A stretch of 64,000 bases of DNA from Candidatus Kerfeldbacteria bacterium (lineage in GTDB: Bacteria > Patescibacteriota > Patescibacteriia > SBBC01): contig JACQPY010000014.1 of NCBI GenBank assembly GCA_016207275.1, forward strand, positions 6,035 through 70,034, written 5' to 3'. The notes below the pieces were generated by a model that worked only from the letters and a program-made list of their open reading frames with translations, was not told where the DNA came from and did no database searches. Shown here in pieces: positions 5,873 to 43,758 of this stretch (positions within the stretch are counted from its first letter, which is position 1; every line of letters begins with the position of its first letter). Made by a program: the position numbers and the translations under genes.

Positions 5873-6796
5873 TTACACGGCAATCTGAAACTTAATGGCC
5901 GGATGACTTTGGTAGTTCTCCAGTTTGAAGTCCTCGTACTGCAGTTCATCAATTGGCTTCTTGGCAATCGTCAGCTTTGGCAAAGGATACGGTTTTCGCG
6001 TCAACTGCTCTTTCAAACCTTCAACGTGGTTCTTATAAATGTGTACGTCGCCGAACGTATGGATGAAGTAGCGAGGCTTCAACGCGCACTCCTGGGCAAT
6101 CATACTCAGCAGCGCGGCGTAACTGGCAATGTTATACGGTACGCCCAGCGCCGTATCGGCGCTGCGTTGGTAGAGCTGCAGATCGAGCCACCGAGCCGAA
6201 ACGTAGAACTGAAAAACCGTGTGGCACGACGGCGGGGCGCGATGGTGGTGGCGAATCAGTTCCTGAATCTCGCCGACGTTCCAGCCGGAGACGATAATCC
6301 GGCGTGAGGTCGGATCATGCTTAATCAAGTCGATGACGCCGTTAATTTGATCGATCTCCTCGCCGGACGACGATAGCCAGCGGCGCCATTGCTTGCCGTA
6401 AATCGGACCGAGTTCGCCGTACTGCTTGGCAAACTCGTCGTCGGTTTTGACGCGTTCCACGAACTTCACCATTTCTTCTTTCCACGCGTCGGAGTATCGC
6501 GGCAATTTCTCAACCAGTTTGTTCTGTTCCAAGTAAATCTGGTAGGCCCACTCGTTCCAGATTTTGACGTCGTGCTGGACTAAGTATTGAATGTTGGTGT
6601 CGCCGCGCAAGAACCACAGCAGCTCGACAATCACGTTCTTGAAGCTGACTTTCTTGGTCGTCACGATGGGAAAACCCTGGCGCAAGTCGTAGCGCGTTTG
6701 GTAACCGAACACCGAGACGGTCCCGATGCCGGTCCGGTCATCACGACTCTCGCCGTGCTCGAGAATGTGGCGAACCAGGTCGAGGTACTGCTGCAT
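5873..6796 (-). CDS. thyA: thymidylate synthase
   Basis: 307 aa; '[15 protein letters not shown]', 'DRTGIGT', active-site region '[11 protein letters not shown]' typical ThyA. Confidence 0.9.
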
Positions 6797-6808
6797 GGTT
6801 TCACTATA

Positions 6809-7483
6809 TCACACGACACCTCGCAGCGCCCGACGCACACGTTCGTGAATTTCGCGTTTCGACAACAACCGTCCTTCTACAATACACTCCACCACGCGTA
6901 TCTCTCGGTTCAACCGTGCCAACTCACGGTACGTTTCTAAGACTTTTCCCTGATAGCGAATGTCCTGTTCATGCGCGTCGCGCTTGTTCCGTTTCAGATA
7001 CTGCCGGCGGTGTTTCTGCAAAATCAGCTTCTGCGCAATCTTCGGCGGAACCGCCAGCACCACGGTCCGATCAGGTTTTGGAATGTTGAACAGCCCGAAC
7101 TCAAGCTGTTTATCCCAGCGCCAATACTTCCGACGCGCTGCACGGGAGAGCAACGCTCCGCCGTATGCCCAGTTCGAGGCTAAGTAACGGTCGGCGATGA
7201 CGATATTCTCCTGATTCAGCCATGAGAGGATTTTCATCCGAGCGGCTGCCCGATCCACCGCATAAAAAATTGCTGCTCGGTACGTTCCGACCTGCTGTGG
7301 CGTTCCATACACGCCGTTCAAGTACGCCTCGACTGCGCCGGCCGACTTCTGGCCGTACTGCGGAAAGGCAATCGTCCGGACTTTTTTACCTCGTCGCCGC
7401 AGCGTCGCGGCCAGCAATCGAGTCTGGGTGGCCTTGCCCGAGCCGTCGGTGCCTTCGATGACGATGAATTTTCCTTTTTTCAT
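6809..7483 (-). CDS. tmk: thymidylate (dTMP) kinase
   Basis: 'FIVIEGTDGSGKATQ' P-loop and Tmk-like overall pattern. Confidence 0.85.
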   Translation of the reverse strand: MKKGKFIVIEGTDGSGKATQTRLLAATLRRRGKKVRTIAFPQYGQKSAGAVEAYLNGVYGTPQQVGTYRAAIFYAVDRAAARMKILSWLNQENIVIADRYLASNWAYGGALLSRAARRKYWRWDKQLEFGLFNIPKPDRTVVLAVPPKIAQKLILQKHRRQYLKRNKRDAHEQDIRYQGKVLETYRELARLNREIRVVECIVEGRLLSKREIHERVRRALRGVV

Positions 7484-38522: not shown

Positions 38523-38969
38523 ATGATCAAACGATCAACCATCATCGGCACCATCAGCACGGTCGGCTTACTGGTCGTCTACCTGTCGGTTGTCAGCGCT
38601 TTGTCCGGTTGGTCCACGACCGCAGAGCAATGGTCGAGTTTCTGGCCGTATCTGGTCGGCTTGGCGATCGGTTTCGGTGTCCAGGTCGGGCTCTACGCAT
38701 ACCTTCGCCAGGCCGTTCACCGTAGTCAGTCAACCGGCAAAGTCGTGGCGCTAACTGGTACGACCTCAACCGCCGCCATGGTCTCCTGCTGCACCCACTA
38801 CCTCGTCAACCTCCTGCCCGTTCTCGGCGCCTCGGGTATCGCCACCTTCGTCGGCCAGTATCAGGTCAATCTGTTCTGGGTCGGACTGGCCGCTAACGCC
38901 GCTGGTCTGGCGTACCTGGCTTCGCGGATCATGAAATTCAGGAAACATCTGCCAGCCATGGCTGCTTGA
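38523..38969 (+). CDS. polytopic membrane protein with CC motif (148 aa), hypothetical
   Basis: 4 TM helices, 'VSCCTHYLVNLLP'. Confidence 0.45.
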   Translation: MIKRSTIIGTISTVGLLVVYLSVVSALSGWSTTAEQWSSFWPYLVGLAIGFGVQVGLYAYLRQAVHRSQSTGKVVALTGTTSTAAMVSCCTHYLVNLLPVLGASGIATFVGQYQVNLFWVGLAANAAGLAYLASRIMKFRKHLPAMAA

Positions 38970-39008
38970 GCGCCTTGCTCATTCCTTACCAACGAGGTAC
39001 GTAAATCT

Positions 39009-39659
39009 ATGCCTGACACCCAAACATCATCGTTCCGCGATCCGGTCTGCGGCATGAGCGTCAACCCGGCCACTGCCACGTTCACCGCCGACCACGCCGG
39101 GGCGACCGTCTACTTCTGCTCGCCCGGCTGCCGCGACCAATTTCTGGCCAATCCAGAATCCTTCACCACCTCTCCAAAAACAACGGTGGTGACGATCCGG
39201 CCGGAAGTTCTCTACGCCGTCCTGGGGCTCATCGCCGTTATCCTAGTCATTTTCGCCTTTCGACCAGGCCCGCCAAGCTCGTCGGTCAGCACCGGATCAA
39301 CCGCGGCGGTTACCGGCACGCCAGCTGGCCAGGACCAGGTGGTCGATGACGGCTCCGGCGGGGTAATTACGTCAGCCAGTCTAAACCGCTCAGCCAGCAC
39401 CCCTGATCAACTGGTCATCACCGTGTCCCTCAATACCCACTCTGTCGACCTGACCGACTTCCGCCCCGTTGACCAAGTCCGCCTGCGAATGGCTGCCGGC
39501 GACGAACTCGAACCGCTGGCTGTCAGCGGTCAGGGCGAGATCAGCTCGCACCATCAAAACTACCGTCTGACCTTTCCGCGGCCGGGCAGCGCGGAGGCCT
39601 CTGTCGTGGTGAAAAACGTGGCTGGCGTAACCGAACGTAAGCTGCCAATCCAACTATGA
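39009..39659 (+). CDS. YHS/TRASH metal-binding domain protein with TM anchor
   Basis: 'DPVCGMSVNP…YFCSPGCRDQFLANP' canonical YHS/TRASH Cys motif, then TM helix and Ser/Thr-rich domain. Confidence 0.65.
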   Translation: MPDTQTSSFRDPVCGMSVNPATATFTADHAGATVYFCSPGCRDQFLANPESFTTSPKTTVVTIRPEVLYAVLGLIAVILVIFAFRPGPPSSSVSTGSTAAVTGTPAGQDQVVDDGSGGVITSASLNRSASTPDQLVITVSLNTHSVDLTDFRPVDQVRLRMAAGDELEPLAVSGQGEISSHHQNYRLTFPRPGSAEASVVVKNVAGVTERKLPIQL

Positions 39660-39661
39660 AT

Positions 39662-39820
39662 CCCGTTAGACGGCTCACGCATCAACGTATACTCATTGAA
39701 GGTTACGATCATACTTACAAGACTAACCATCTAATCCCGTTAGACGGTCCTGCAGTTGGGCCCGACAGTGGGATAGGCGTAGATCTTCAGTTTCTTAACC
39801 GTCTAACGGGACTAACGGGA
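39662..39820. repeat. CCCGTTAGA-family element, compound copy 5 (two left arms, one right arm plus extra half-arm)
   Basis: cccgttagacgg at 39662-39673 and 39736-39747; ccgtctaacggg 39799-39810; ctaacggg 39813-39820 abutting ATG of next gene; flanked by atgaa direct repeat. Confidence 0.75.
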
Positions 39821-40695
39821 TGAACCTGCTCGTCAGCGCCTCGATCGTCGCGTCGTTCGTGGCTGGGGTGGCCGCACTGTTCGCACCGTGCTGCATCACG
39901 GTGCTCCTACCGTCGTACCTCGGCTCAATCTTCCGCGAACGGAAGGCCGTCTTCTTGATGACCTTCATCTTCTTCCTCGGCATCCTGACGGTCTTTTTCC
40001 CCTTGGGATTGGGGTCGGCAGCGTTCGGCCAGTTCTTGAGCCGCAACCACACGCTCATCTTCTCGATCGGCGGCGCCTTCTTACTCATCCTTGGACTCGG
40101 CCTGCTCCTCGGCAAGAGCTTCTCCCTCCCCTTCCACGTCAACCCCACCCTCAAGAACCACCACCCCTGGTCAGTCTTCACGCTCGGCATCTTCTCCGGC
40201 ATTGCCACCACCTGCTGTGCGCCGGTTTTAGCCGGCGTCTTAGCCCTGGCCGCCCTGCCCGGCTCGATCTTTTGGGGCGCCGCTTACACCGTCAGCTACG
40301 TCCTCGGCATGGTCACGCCGCTGTTCATCCTGGCGTCGGTGCTCGATCGCACCAAACTCACCCAGCGATTCATGGCCTGGCGGCGCAGGTGGACGTACTC
40401 GATTGGCAAACTGGTTGTCAACCTCAGCGTGGCCGAAGCGATGGCCGGCGTCATCTTCGTTGGCATGGGCCTGACAACGATCTGGCTGGCAATGAACAAC
40501 CGCCTGGCCGTCCACTCACGCTACCAGGTTGACGTCAACATCTTCCTGACCAAAGTGCTCCGGAGCATCAAGGGTGCCGTGACCGCCATTCCCGAAGTTG
40601 TCTGGGCAGTCGTGCTGATCCTCGCGCTCATCGGCATTATCGCCCGAACACGTTATCTTATTCGTCAAGAAAAACACTATGACCATAAACCATAA
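39820..40695 (+). CDS. DsbD_2/CcdA-like polytopic membrane protein with CC pairs in TM1 and TM4
   Basis: 'FAPCCITVLLP' and 'TTCCAPVLAGV' in TM helices; ~8 TM; family assignment tentative. Confidence 0.45.
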   Translation: MNLLVSASIVASFVAGVAALFAPCCITVLLPSYLGSIFRERKAVFLMTFIFFLGILTVFFPLGLGSAAFGQFLSRNHTLIFSIGGAFLLILGLGLLLGKSFSLPFHVNPTLKNHHPWSVFTLGIFSGIATTCCAPVLAGVLALAALPGSIFWGAAYTVSYVLGMVTPLFILASVLDRTKLTQRFMAWRRRWTYSIGKLVVNLSVAEAMAGVIFVGMGLTTIWLAMNNRLAVHSRYQVDVNIFLTKVLRSIKGAVTAIPEVVWAVVLILALIGIIARTRYLIRQEKHYDHKP

Positions 40696-41332
40696 AGGCA
40701 TCTCCGTCGGGACGTCGATTGTTCTCTCCGCGATCATTCTCGTGGTCGGCGGACTCATCTATCTGAGTGGCCGTGAACGGTCGAGCCCGAGCAGTTCGAC
40801 CGCGGCCGCTGGCGACACCGCCGACCATCACGGCCTGGCCAGCAGCGGTCCGACCTCGAACCTCCAAAACCTCATCAACCAAGCTGCGCCCGACTTCTCG
40901 CTGACCGATCACAACGGCGTGACCTATTCCCTGGCTAGTCTGAAAGGGAAAAACGTGGTCTTATTCTTCAACGAGGGTGTCATGTGTTACCCGGCCTGCT
41001 GGAATCAGGTTGCTCTCTTTGGCGCGGATGATCGGTTCAAGGGCGACGACGTCGTTGCGCTGTCGGTGGTGGTGGATAGTCAACAGGAATGGAATGAAGC
41101 AGTCCGTCAGCTTCCCGAGCTGGCCCAAGCCACGGTCGTTCATGATAACGGCGCAAAAGTATCCTCCGCCTACGGAGTGCTGACCACCAAGTCCTCAATG
41201 CACTACGGCCAGCTGCCGGGCCACACCTACGTCGTGATCGACCAGAACGGCATCATCCGCCACGTCTACGACGATCCGAACATGGCCATTCACAATGACC
41301 AGCTCGTTGAAGAGATCGCCAAACTGTCGTAA
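40679..41332 (+). CDS. membrane-anchored redoxin/TlpA-like thioredoxin-fold protein
   Basis: N-terminal TM; 'FSLTDHNGVTYSLASLKGKNVVLFFNEGVMCYPAC' AhpC/TSA-redoxin-like arrangement (non-canonical CxxxC). Confidence 0.5.
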   Translation: MTINHKGISVGTSIVLSAIILVVGGLIYLSGRERSSPSSSTAAAGDTADHHGLASSGPTSNLQNLINQAAPDFSLTDHNGVTYSLASLKGKNVVLFFNEGVMCYPACWNQVALFGADDRFKGDDVVALSVVVDSQQEWNEAVRQLPELAQATVVHDNGAKVSSAYGVLTTKSSMHYGQLPGHTYVVIDQNGIIRHVYDDPNMAIHNDQLVEEIAKLS

Positions 41333-41373
41333 ACTTCAGACTAGAGCTTGTAATCTAAAAGGAGGTGATTGAG

Positions 41374-41505
41374 ATGATGGACTACAATATGATGGGTGGT
41401 AGCAACGTCGGCGGCATGATGTTCTTCGCCTGGATTACCTACATCATCGTCAACGTTGCTCTCGTCTACGCAATTCTGTGCATGGCGAAGTATTTGAAAA
41501 AGTAA
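41374..41505 (+). CDS. small hydrophobic peptide (43 aa)
   Basis: ATG 5 nt after AAGGAGGTGA; 'MMDYNMMGGSNVGGMMFFAWITYIIVNVALVYAILCMAKYLKK'; C-terminal 8 aa repeated at 41870-41893. Confidence 0.5.
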   Translation: MMDYNMMGGSNVGGMMFFAWITYIIVNVALVYAILCMAKYLKK

Positions 41506-41540
41506 CATTTCGTAAATTTGCTTTCCTGCTCGTCTTCCCA

Positions 41541-41768
41541 TCACGACCCCCTGGCAGGGTTGAGACAGATATATTCTCGAGTATTCTCAAGGTCACGTTC
41601 GGTGCGGAGAACGTGTTCATGGAACGATCGTTGCCAAAGCGACGCGCCGGGTGTTCTTTGCATACGATTCACCGCAGCGGCTGAAAACGTTTTGAAACCC
41701 CGGATGATTTCTGTAAGTGGGTGCTGGACGGTGCCACGCCCCCTCCGTAGCTGCGGGTGTATAACCAT
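41541..41768 (-). pseudogene. C-terminal fragment of IS200/IS605-type (RAYT-like, Y1) transposase
   Basis: 'EIIRGFKTFSAAAVNRMQRTPGASLWQRSFHEHVLRTERDLENTREYICLNPAR' matches the conserved C-terminal half (…LKG.ss..i..…..WQr.f.dhviR.e.dl…r.YI..NP); HuH N-terminal half absent. Confidence 0.5.
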
Positions 41769-41827
41769 GACGTAACATGTTCTTCCTCGCTCGAAAAAAC
41801 CTTTTCGCTGAAAAAACCCGCTTAATC

Positions 41828-41893
41828 ATGTCCATCAGCGGCGTGGCCTTGATCCACTCAATTCCGGGCATGGCTAAATATCTCAAAAAGTAA
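41828..41893 (+). other. 21-codon ORF duplicating the C-terminus of the 43-aa peptide (MSISGVALIHSIPGMAKYLKK)
   Basis: shares 'GMAKYLKK*' / 'CMAKYLKK*' with 41374-41505; no SD; possibly the displaced original 3' end after transposase insertion. Confidence 0.25.
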
Positions 41894-41903
41894 ACCCCAC
41901 CGC

Positions 41904-43019
41904 GTGCCGACCCTCCTCATCGCCCTCCGCAATCTGTTCGGCGAACGCAGCCGGTTCGTCATCACCGTAACTGGCGTGACGTTCTCGGTTGTGCTAATCA
42001 TCATTCTTCAGGCTCTCTACCAGGGCTGGAGCTTTAAGACCGGCCAGTACATCCGGGCCCAGGACGCCGACCTATGGGTAGCCCAGGCCGGCTCGCGCGA
42101 CATGTTCCACAGCATTTCGTTGCTGCCGGCAAGCGCTGCCAGCGCGATTGCTTCCCTCGACGGAGTGGCCAAGGTCAGGCCGTTCGTCGGCAAACGCGTC
42201 GGCCTCCACATTGATGACAAGGACCGCGTCCTCTACCTCGTCCGCGACGACGGGAGTTCGGATCGGACTGGCCCGGTACGCCTGGAGCAAGGGGGATCAC
42301 CACCGCGACCCGGCGAAATCATAGTCGACCGTATTTTCGCCAACAACAACGGACTGGTGATCGGCGACAGCCTCGAGATCGGCAATCAACGGTTCACCAT
42401 CGCCGGACTGGCCAGCGGCGGCGATTTGGTCACGCTCTCGTTCGCTTTCATCAACGCCGAGGACGCTGACCGAATGTTCCAACTCCCCAACCTGGTCAAC
42501 TACTTCTTAGTCAAGCTCAAGCCAGCGACTGACCAACCGCCTATCGCCGGGAGCATTACCTCGCTGTTCGATAACGCCACTGTCTTTCCGAAAGACGAAT
42601 TCGTCAGCATCAACGGCGAATTCATCCGTGAATCGTTCCTGCCGATCATCTTCGTCCTGGTCCTCATCGGCGTGGCCGTCGGCATCGTTGTCATCGGGCT
42701 GACTATCTTCACTTCCACGATCGACAAATCGCGCGAGTTCGGCGTGCTGAAGGCGATTGGCGCAAGCGGAACGCACCTCAACCGTATCGTCGCTATCCAA
42801 TCGCTCGTCGCCAGCCTCTTCGGATACACAGCTGGAACGATAGTGGCAATCCTCCTCGGCTTGGTAGTCGGCAGGTACGTTCCAGAGTTCGTCGTCCTCT
42901 TCCGCCCGATTGACTTTGCCTGGATTTTTGCCGTGGCCGTGGCCATGGCCCTGCTGGCCGCCCTCATTCCGATCCGACGGATCGCCAGCATCAACCCGGC
43001 TGACGTTTTCAAAGCCTAG
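41904..43019 (+). CDS. ABC transporter permease, FtsX/MacB-like
   Basis: N-terminal TM, ~200-aa extracytoplasmic domain, C-terminal 3-TM FtsX-like region; GTG start. Confidence 0.75.
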   Translation: MPTLLIALRNLFGERSRFVITVTGVTFSVVLIIILQALYQGWSFKTGQYIRAQDADLWVAQAGSRDMFHSISLLPASAASAIASLDGVAKVRPFVGKRVGLHIDDKDRVLYLVRDDGSSDRTGPVRLEQGGSPPRPGEIIVDRIFANNNGLVIGDSLEIGNQRFTIAGLASGGDLVTLSFAFINAEDADRMFQLPNLVNYFLVKLKPATDQPPIAGSITSLFDNATVFPKDEFVSINGEFIRESFLPIIFVLVLIGVAVGIVVIGLTIFTSTIDKSREFGVLKAIGASGTHLNRIVAIQSLVASLFGYTAGTIVAILLGLVVGRYVPEFVVLFRPIDFAWIFAVAVAMALLAALIPIRRIASINPADVFKA

Positions 43020-43020
43020 C

Positions 43021-43758
43021 ATGGTCGAGCTTCAAAAGATTACCAAAATCTTCGGCCGGGGAGAAACCTCCGTTCACGCCGTCAACAACGTCAGCCTGAA
43101 CATTCAGCCGGGCGAGATCGTCGTCATTATGGGACCGTCGGGATCAGGCAAGACCACACTCGTCTCAATTGCGGGCGGGTTGATGAAACCAACTGATGGA
43201 ACTATCATCATCGACGGCACCGACATCACCGCGAAAAACGAGCGCCAGCTGCCGAAGATTCGCCTGACCACCATGGGTTTCATCTTCCAGTCGTTTAACC
43301 TGCTACAGAATCTAACGGCTATGGAAAACGCGGCCATTCCCCTGCTCCTCGCTGGCCAGTCAAAGCAGACGGCCTTTGATAAAAGCCGGGCCCTGCTTGA
43401 ACGGCTCAACCTCAGCCATCGGTCTCACGCTCGTCCGCGAGAACTGTCCGGCGGCGAGCAGCAGCGCGTAGCCATTGCCCGGGCCCTCGTGAACAACCCA
43501 AAAGTCATTTTCGCCGACGAACCGACTGCCAACCTTGACCGGGCGATCGGCCACCAGGTCATGCAGCTCCTCTGCTCGGTCGGCTGCGAGCAGGGCAAGA
43601 GCGTCATCATCGTCAGCCACGACGAACGCATTAAGGATGTTGCCCACCGGGTGATTTACATCGAGGATGGTAAGCTCATACGCGAGGAACCGGGTCAGCA
43701 CAACCGCATCTGCACCATGCGCGCTCACTCGTACCAATTGCGCGACCAACGCGCTTGA
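43021..43758 (+). CDS. ABC transporter ATP-binding protein (MacB/LolD-like)
   Basis: 'GPSGSGKTT', 'LSGGEQQRVAIARAL', 'IFADEPTANLD'; starts 2 nt after permease stop. Confidence 0.9.
   Translation: MVELQKITKIFGRGETSVHAVNNVSLNIQPGEIVVIMGPSGSGKTTLVSIAGGLMKPTDGTIIIDGTDITAKNERQLPKIRLTTMGFIFQSFNLLQNLTAMENAAIPLLLAGQSKQTAFDKSRALLERLNLSHRSHARPRELSGGEQQRVAIARALVNNPKVIFADEPTANLDRAIGHQVMQLLCSVGCEQGKSVIIVSHDERIKDVAHRVIYIEDGKLIREEPGQHNRICTMRAHSYQLRDQRA

Follow-up and report, generated by a model that had tools for sequence, protein, structure and literature searches.

A 5'-truncated REP-associated tyrosine transposase gene in a Kerfeldbacteria genome, with its breakpoint at an internal REP palindrome

The 64,000-nucleotide stretch of a Candidatus Kerfeldbacteria genome analysed here, referred to below as the window, carries a 75-codon reading frame on its minus strand as well as a family of palindromic repeats, the CCCGTTAGA elements, and this raises the question of what the short frame is, how it came to be so short, and whether it has anything to do with the repeats. 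A sequence-only reading had taken the frame for a truncated Y1/HuH transposase of the RAYT (REP-associated tyrosine transposase) type and had tentatively tied it to the repeat hairpins. The analysis described here indicates that the frame is probably what is left, without function, of a tnpA_REP (RAYT) gene of subclass 2.4 / group 4 that was present in single copy and inherited vertically; the relic ends at a palindrome of its own and is not associated with the CCCGTTAGA elements.

Family and extent of the reading frame

Two features define the frame and the residues that it has kept:
41541 to 41768, minus strand: 75-codon reading frame, the 3' half of a tnpA_REP gene (RAYT, TnpAY1 subclass 2.4-like), from its match to NF047646.
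41559 to 41636, minus strand: catalytic and recognition residues W45, Q46, E51, H52, R55, Tyr66 and Asn70, from alignment with 4ER8.

The 75-residue product, which begins at an ATG (MVIHPQLRRGRGTVQHPLTEIIRGFKTFSAAAVNRMQRTPGASLWQRSFHEHVLRTERDLENTREYICLNPARGS), matches the NCBIfam model NF047646, 'REP-associated tyrosine transposase', with E=3.6e-11 and 43.2 bits. The match takes in only the C-terminal half of the model (positions 71-133 of 146), and the family named from the sequence alone is thereby borne out. The Pfam model PF01797 (Y1_Tnp) by itself gives no significant match, its E value being 0.031 and its score 14.8 bits where the gathering score is 23. The frame scores under both curated cut-offs, which are 80 bits (full-length) for NF047646 and 23 bits for PF01797; a full-length relative, rebuilt from locus L004 by the repair of one frameshift, reaches 58.4 bits with NF047646, also under the cut-off, and 24.0 bits with PF01797, just over it. 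A match to the IS200 model NF033573 is weak as well. When a profile of the fragment and three relatives was searched against 1.84 billion proteins, 10,638 cluster representatives were found at E<=1e-3, and the family to which the fragment belongs is a large and ordinary one. Many of the top database representatives, with lengths of 100-140 residues, begin precisely with the MPNH(V/I)H motif. This suggests that, where the 5' part of a copy is disrupted, gene callers often take the internal methionine of the HuH motif as the start, and that such 5' decay is common.

What remains in the window extends from helix alphaC to the C-terminus, without beta1-beta3 and without the HuH motif. The sequence-only reading was correct in stating that the N-terminal HuH half is absent: no HuH motif is present in any of the three minus-strand frames upstream of the reading frame, tblastn of the N-terminal half of a sister orthologue against the 64 kb returned no match, and the window contains one RAYT copy. 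The residues of the C-terminal half can be placed on a known structure, as the stretch PLWQTSFHEHVLRGTSDLERVREYIRLNPI aligns, by way of the reconstructed L004-based relative, with residues 92-121 of E. coli TnpArep (4ER8), NIWQPRFWEHAIRNTKDYRHHVDYIYINPV. In this alignment LW45Q46RSFHE51H52VLR55 of the frame corresponds to E. coli W94, Q95, E100, H101 and R104, and REY66ICLN70P aligns with DY115IYIN119P, so that the Y---NP motif is present. In E. coli TnpArep the GTAG guide is recognised by W94, Q95, E100, H101 and R104, while Y115 acts as the nucleophile and N119 supplies the third metal ligand (PMC6006769). Close and distant relatives of the fragment carry NH[VI]H or DHIH, WQ and YI..NP motifs, near the published subclass 2.4 set, and the HuH region of the orthologue and relatives reads PDHIHG or PNHVHG.

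Ancestral locus, internal REP and breakpoint

The genes on either side of the fragment provide the frame for comparison with other genomes:
41365 to 41505, plus strand: small membrane-protein gene (43-46 residues, ...MAKYLKK), tail-to-tail with the RAYT fragment.
41904 to 43019, plus strand: FtsX/MacB-type ABC permease gene, whose counterpart in the sister genome is divergent from, and 80 nt away from, the RAYT start.

The best relative, P0001 (77% identity, annotated as 'transposase, partial'), has been found in the Kerfeldbacteria MAG GCA_016204585.1, where it lies at the end of contig JACQKH010000025.1, reaches further towards the N-terminus and retains the HuH motif (VMPDHIHGIIV). Its neighbours are those of the window, namely Redoxin, DsbD_TM and YHS genes and genes for proteins of 148 and 260 residues. 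The sister gene continues on contig 46 of that assembly (JACQKH010000046.1) with its remaining 5' part (MRLSGYDYSLPGYYFVTICTK...VVMPDHIHGIIVIPDEPLWRSRPGPVAAGL), and there the RAYT start is divergent from the FtsX-permease orthologue, 80 nt upstream. The RAYT gene of the sister MAG is apparently complete, at a shared syntenic site, and split over two contigs (L003 and L047). Given this synteny, the ancestral order was the small gene (forward), RAYT (reverse), FtsX (forward) and an ABC ATPase gene (forward), and the window copy is an orthologous relic, as opposed to a recent insertion. When metagenomes were scanned for a complete gene at this site, the only close relative recovered was L020 (60% identity), which lies at a different locus.

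The small MAKYLKK gene also follows the Redoxin gene in L003, L044 and L050; its product, a conserved hydrophobic protein of 43-46 residues (MMDYNMMGG...FFAWITYIIVNVALVYAILCMAKYLKK) without family annotation, is encoded behind Redoxin in all Kerfeldbacteria-like loci examined. Other Kerfeldbacteria-like genomes have a second Y1/HuH-like gene of 210 residues (L044 6355-6987, L045 3166-3798 and L050 ~6450-7050, all on the minus strand), with the motifs PNHVHLLV ... FWHRRFHFRII ... YIRFNYRK and a long insert after HuH, which lies between the FtsX and ABC-ATPase genes and splits the operon. This gene is absent from the window, where the FtsX and ATPase genes are contiguous.

When the relatives were scanned for inverted repeats, their coding sequences proved to contain perfect palindromes in the interval from the HuH motif to HPLTEIIRGFK. 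These palindromes are GC-rich, with a foot that reads GT[AG]G or GCAG and a centre, GGTTT/AAACC (the slash marking the axis), that encodes GLNP. In the sister gene the palindrome is a perfect 36-nt "double-foot" REP (CCCC-GTAG-...GGGTTT/AAACCC...-CTAC-GGGG). The palindromes of the close relatives, each written as its two sides about the axis, are as follows:
L003/L009: CCCCGTAGCCGCGGGTTT / AAACCCGCGGCTACGGGG
L010: CCCCGTAGCTGTGGGTTT / AAACCCACAGCTACGGGG
L020: GCAGCTGCGGGTTT / AAACCCGCAGCTGC
L004/L006: (C)CGCAGGCGGGGGTTT / AAACCCCCGCCTGCG(G)
L007: CGCAGGTGGGGGTTT / AAACCCCCACCTGCG
L005: a longer version, 83%-complementary

The REPs of these seven close relatives (L003/L009, L004, L005, L006, L007, L010 and L020) occupy one common position in the coding sequence. 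Over the seven copies 92.9% of cells pair and 5 pairs are changed on both sides, a covariation score that was reached by none of 500 shuffles, and pairing falls to 39-52% when the partner columns are slid. The intragenic palindrome was considered as a new feature and dropped, since an in-frame intragenic REP, forming a variable insertion between beta3 and alphaC, is a published hallmark of TnpAY1 subclass 2.4 (PMC6006769). REPs with a 'double foot', GT[AG]G...C[TC]AC, have been described by Quentin et al. 2018 (PMC6006769), and the palindromes of L009 and L010 are textbook examples of this type. The intragenic REP that distinguishes the subclass is thus found as a half in the window and as a complete element in 7 close and many distant relatives.

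Distant relatives from Clostridia have two internal hairpins, one with a 5' GTAG foot in the beta1:alphaA loop and one with a 3' CTAC foot after the HuH strand, and these recur in the flanks of the gene (e.g. L011, L014, L033 and L035), as in a classical REPtron. In the relatives from Patescibacteria no flanking REP was found within 3-4 kb, and the intragenic one is the sole REP found. The window likewise has no family of hairpins with a GT[AG]G foot, and the arm of its internal REP is unique in the 64 kb; when dispersed copies of the internal REP were sought with GGGTTTAAACCC (2 mismatches) or with the arm (3 mismatches), matches were no more frequent than chance, and a scan of the window for stems of at least 9 pairs gave nothing beyond chance.

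It is at this palindrome that the window copy ends:
41740 to 41765, minus strand: half of the in-frame internal double-foot REP, from alignments with L003/L009, L010, L020 and L004-L007.
41762 to 41776, no strand: truncation breakpoint, with homology to the complete orthologue stopping no more than ~7 nt from the palindrome centre.
41769 to 41903, plus strand: filler in place of the RAYT 5' half and intergenic region, from tblastn, blastn and local alignments compared with shuffles.

The half REP consists of one arm with its CTAC foot (ACACCCGCAGCTACGGAGGGG) and a degenerate hairpin tip (GGTTAT), and the partner arm is gone. Homology in the window runs from the 3' end to ...CCCCTCCGTAGCTGCGGGTGTATAACC (plus strand) and takes in the whole REP arm and foot, the degenerate tip and ~5 nt of the second arm. 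While the sister sequence folds into a hairpin of -24.2 kcal/mol (z -6.3), the window junction reaches -7.0 kcal/mol (z -0.17), no better than shuffles.

Contig 46 of the sister MAG (L047 1-20) ends exactly at the palindrome centre (TTT/AAACCC...), and contigs 46 and 25 overlap by ~90 nt with one C/R codon difference. The L003/L009, L010 and L041 assemblies also start or end in or near the intragenic REP, and such ends could reflect assembler behaviour at palindromes or strain-level structural heterogeneity. These contig ends, in the sister MAG and in L009, L010 and L041, make it clear that assemblers struggle with the sequence, and they would be what speaks for regarding the truncation itself as an artefact, a false join at the palindrome. 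The same junction, however, is present with 0 mismatches in independent Logan assemblies of two runs, in L001 (SRR12113419), which covers window 38774-41791, and in L052 (SRR12113385), which covers 41607-43577 and, as a single contig, spans 160 nt inside the fragment and the entire filler before passing into FtsX, so that a false join is extremely unlikely.

The distance from the palindrome centre to the FtsX start is 358 nt in the sister as opposed to 135 nt in the window, where the filler is composed of two recognizable parts. One of these is a diverged start of the FtsX permease (41777-41850, MFFLARKNLFAEKTRLIMSISGV), 40% identical to the window's own FtsX and 60% to that of L050, and the other is a diverged tail of the small MAKYLKK gene (41832-41893, ...ALIHSIPGMAKYLKK followed by a stop), 63% identical to the local copy. 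They share the microhomology CATCAGCGGCGTG, at which they overlap, and together form a chimeric reading frame of 38 codons (41777-41893). In local alignments of the filler with the small-gene tail, the window FtsX start and the L050 FtsX start, none of 500 shuffles scored as high. Derivation from the RAYT 5' half or the intergenic region of the sister was rejected, as 486/500 and 309/500 shuffles, respectively, score equally high; the filler has no similarity to sister L047 1-358, and a protein-level resemblance to the L047 intergenic region that was noted by eye is unsupported.

The permuted order of the two parts, FtsX start and then small-gene tail, is what would be expected for a tandem-duplication junction, and homology-facilitated illegitimate recombination would yield the same order. 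A recent tandem duplication or template switch was rejected, given that the pieces are only 40-63% identical in protein to the local genes, as opposed to 90% for the RAYT remnant and its orthologue. It is possible that the filler is an old duplication junction, or that it arose by homology-facilitated illegitimate recombination with foreign DNA. Because the filler is highly diverged while the remnant is 90% identical to its orthologue, the filler is much older than the truncation. The simplest reading would be one recent deletion with one end at the REP tip and the other at the margin of an older scar, and the history of the filler may have involved more than one rearrangement.

There are three other copies whose decay coincides with the internal REP. 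In the metagenome contig JAEEGL016586049.1 (L038 999-1298) the HuH segment has been deleted between two inverted internal REPs, leaving a perfect double-foot REP with a 15-bp stem (CCGTAGGGGCGCTTCACGAAGCGCCCCTACGG). Deletion between two inverted internal REPs is the route by which double-foot REPs arise according to the proposal of Quentin et al. 2018 (PMC6006769), and L038 provides a case of it in nature. The copy at L040 317-487, internal to its contig, is N-terminally truncated at the outer edge of the internal REP and retains the REP whole. In L018 3001-3186, from an AT-rich member of the Moraniibacteria, the gene is truncated immediately upstream of HPLTEII, at the REP site, again internal to the contig. 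The coincidence of breakpoint and REP in these four copies (the window, L018, L040 and L038) is suggestive; because locus searches were seeded with C-terminal peptide patterns, by which only copies keeping the 3' half can be found, the clustering is suggestive, not proven. That decay breakpoints repeatedly coincide with the intragenic REP is the modestly new point that these data suggest.

Taken together, these observations lead to the following proposed course of events. In the ancestor a RAYT gene would have been flanked by the small MAKYLKK gene and the FtsX permease gene, an arrangement that the sister Kerfeldbacteria MAG retains. The loop that joins the HuH strand (beta3) to helix alphaC would have held an in-frame REP hairpin, as in other members of the subclass, and in this case a perfect double-foot palindrome. 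In the lineage of the window the gene would have been broken at the tip of the palindrome, with loss of all sequence 5' of the break: strands beta1-beta3 together with the HuH motif, as well as the start codon and promoter region. The coincident position in four decayed copies suggests that the palindrome caused the break, for which the candidate routes are replication slippage, cleavage by the enzyme itself, or extrusion of a hairpin or cruciform that a nuclease then cuts. With only half of the fold left, the remnant would be unable to coordinate metal or cleave DNA, and it is presumably inert.

Residual function, the CCCGTTAGA elements and other readings

While the 75-residue remnant most likely does nothing now, there is evidence that its sequence has changed little. 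Residues 17-75 are 90% identical to the sister orthologue, with dN/dS 0.11 and dS 0.41, and neighbouring genes have dS values of 0.5-1.6 relative to the sister; given the little change in residues 17-75, either the truncation is recent or the remnant is still constrained. When the changes are polarised, the window branch has 4 non-synonymous and 3 synonymous changes and the sister branch 2 and 3, with 8 ambiguous, which is too few to decide. An alternative, in which the product is expressed and plays some separate role, perhaps that of a regulator binding REP or GTAG sequences or that of a dominant-negative subunit, would fit an intact frame with an ATG start, the low dN/dS and the retention of every GTAG-contact residue and of the tyrosine. 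However, of the four core beta strands only one is left, both histidines that bind the metal are missing, no promoter-like site was found for the frame on the minus strand, no convincing ribosome-binding site was seen on reading the sequence, and the window branch carries R69C in the Y motif as well as other replacements. The relatives, moreover, decay freely: L004 839-1335 has a frameshift between an N-terminal 63-residue and a C-terminal 101-residue frame, L005 640-1113 has two in-frame stop codons, one of them at the conserved Trp, and L018, L040 and L038 are truncated. Because half of the fold and both histidines have been lost, expression signals are lacking and relatives decay freely, a residual function is quite unlikely. 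A related and broader proposal is that the in-frame intragenic REP makes subclass 2.4 RAYT genes inherently fragile, perhaps through cleavage by the encoded enzyme, so that they limit themselves by recurrent decay, with 3' halves, in which the guide-reading residues and the tyrosine are kept, perhaps being selected as REP-binders; this is a speculative and quite unlikely extension, under which the window, L018, L040 and L038 would be four instances of decay at a gene's own REP.

Among the claims made from sequence alone, the abundance of the palindromic repeats is real, as CCCGTTAGA has 14 exact matches in the window as opposed to 0.32 expected. The elements are 75-100 bp long and have inverted termini of 11-16 bp; on folding only 11-14 bp of the termini pair, and the interiors are unrelated between copies. 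They are flanked by direct repeats of 3-5 bp that vary in sequence (TCAT, TCAA(C), CTAA and TTAG), and the GT[AG]G foot is absent from them. Flanking direct repeats of 3-5 bp are a signature of cut-and-paste MITEs, while Y1 transposition makes none, and the caveat that had been attached to the proposed link, that such repeats are unexpected for Y1/HuH transposition, was well placed.

The CCCGTTAGA elements occupy a shared site in three genomes (window 39662-39810, L003 2047-2122 and L050 2612-2766) in which neighbouring genes have dS of ~0.5-1.6, and in all three the element abuts the ATG of DsbD_TM (...TCTAACGGGATGAACCTGCT), with conserved termini and completely diverged interiors. This suggests selection on the ends or a strong insertion hotspot.

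The link itself, in which the CCCGTTAGA elements would be REPIN-like clients of the RAYT lineage and the fragment their decayed mobiliser, finds no support in the distribution of the elements. Elements and RAYT clade do co-occur in Kerfeldbacteria-like genomes (the window, L003, L004, L006, L020 and L050), and some elements end in CCCCGTTAG, one base off the CCCCGTAG foot of the internal REP in L009 and L010. However, in L006 the foot of the internal REP is GCAG, yet the element there still reads CCCCGTTAG, and no elements were found in the flanks of L007, L044 and L047. The copy nearest the fragment (39662-39810) is 1.7 kb away, and in no locus examined does an element flank a RAYT gene, the nearest copies being 1.1-2 kb distant and none lying within 1 kb. 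This includes the relatives that bear the HuH motif, which are the decisive ones for the proposed link, as none of them (sister L003+L047, L006, L007 and L020) has CCCGTTAGA hairpins beside it. At a density of ~1 element per 8 kb in the window, the distances between elements and RAYT genes are those expected by chance, and chance likewise explains the presence of an element in loci of 6-8 kb. Of the properties of REPs and REPINs, the elements thus lack the GT[AG]G foot at the base of a GC-rich imperfect palindrome and the RAYT-flanking copies, and they have target-site duplications, which REPs and REPINs do not; together with the variable sequence of the direct repeats and the unpaired, unrelated interiors this makes it very unlikely that the RAYT lineage mobilises them. 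With the CCCGTTAGA elements set apart from Y1 transposition, the search for their mobiliser is redirected to a DDE transposase.

It is exceedingly improbable that the fragment derives from an ordinary mobile IS200/IS605 insertion sequence, as opposed to a domesticated RAYT. Such an origin would be in line with the weak matches to Pfam Y1_Tnp and NF033573, but IS200 proper is excluded because the fragment has a Y...NP motif (class 2) and not the Y...Q of subclass 1.1, with Asn rather than Gln four residues past the tyrosine. In addition, it occupies the same syntenic position in a genome whose neighbouring genes differ by dS 0.5-1.6, it is present as a single copy in 64 kb, and no tnpB was among the called genes beside the RAYT in those loci for which gene calls were returned.

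A decayed RAYT of the subclass 2.4 type is therefore the preferred reading, and it has several consequences. The fragment is a pseudogene and should be treated accordingly in annotation. Among Patescibacteria, in Kerfeldbacteria and their relatives, there are group 4 / subclass 2.4 RAYTs that carry an intragenic REP, and the finding that in these small genomes it is the sole REP found in the sequence examined fits a REP population that has become extinct around a lingering or decaying RAYT. The breakpoints of the four independently decayed copies suggest, in turn, that the intragenic hairpin is a weak point in gene loss.

Comparison with known systems

The closest known relatives are the TnpAY1 proteins of subclass 2.4 (Quentin, Siguier, Chandler & Fichant 2018, PMC6006769), which correspond to RAYT group 4 (Bertels et al. 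2017, PMC5581495). As in that subclass, there is an HuH motif of the NH[IFV]H type (in the relatives), a W-Q motif, a Y..xNP motif and a variable beta3-alphaC insertion derived from an in-frame REP; the REPs are of the 'double-foot' (GT[AG]G...C[TC]AC) and 'canonical long' kinds, REP abundance is low, the taxonomic distribution is patchy and, going by the one copy in 64 kb, copy number appears to be low. Unlike subclass 2.4, the window copy is truncated and without HuH, the members examined from Patescibacteria have the intragenic REP only, with none in 3-4 kb of flank, some of these members have a GCAG foot instead of GT[AG]G, and the Y motif reads YI[RC]LNP as opposed to the published YIxNNP. 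Judged from motifs and the intragenic REP, subclass 2.4 would be the closest assignment.

The E. coli TnpA_REP / RAYT (YafM, PDB 4ER8), which belongs to another subclass (2.2), shares the fold family and the conserved residues W94, Q95, E100, H101, R104, Y115 and N119, while identity is only ~30% over 30 residues; its gene has no intragenic REP and is flanked by REPs, which are abundant. TnpA of IS200/IS605 (subclass 1.1) has in common with the fragment the superfamily of HuH/Y1 single-strand DNA transposases, and is set apart by a Y...Q motif, a high copy number, hairpins in a subterminal position and, often, a tnpB partner; here none of these was seen. The CCCGTTAGA elements, on the other hand, resemble the MITEs of DDE transposons in their length of 75-100 bp, TIRs of 11-16 bp, variable interiors and short target-site duplications, and differ from them in that no autonomous partner was identified.
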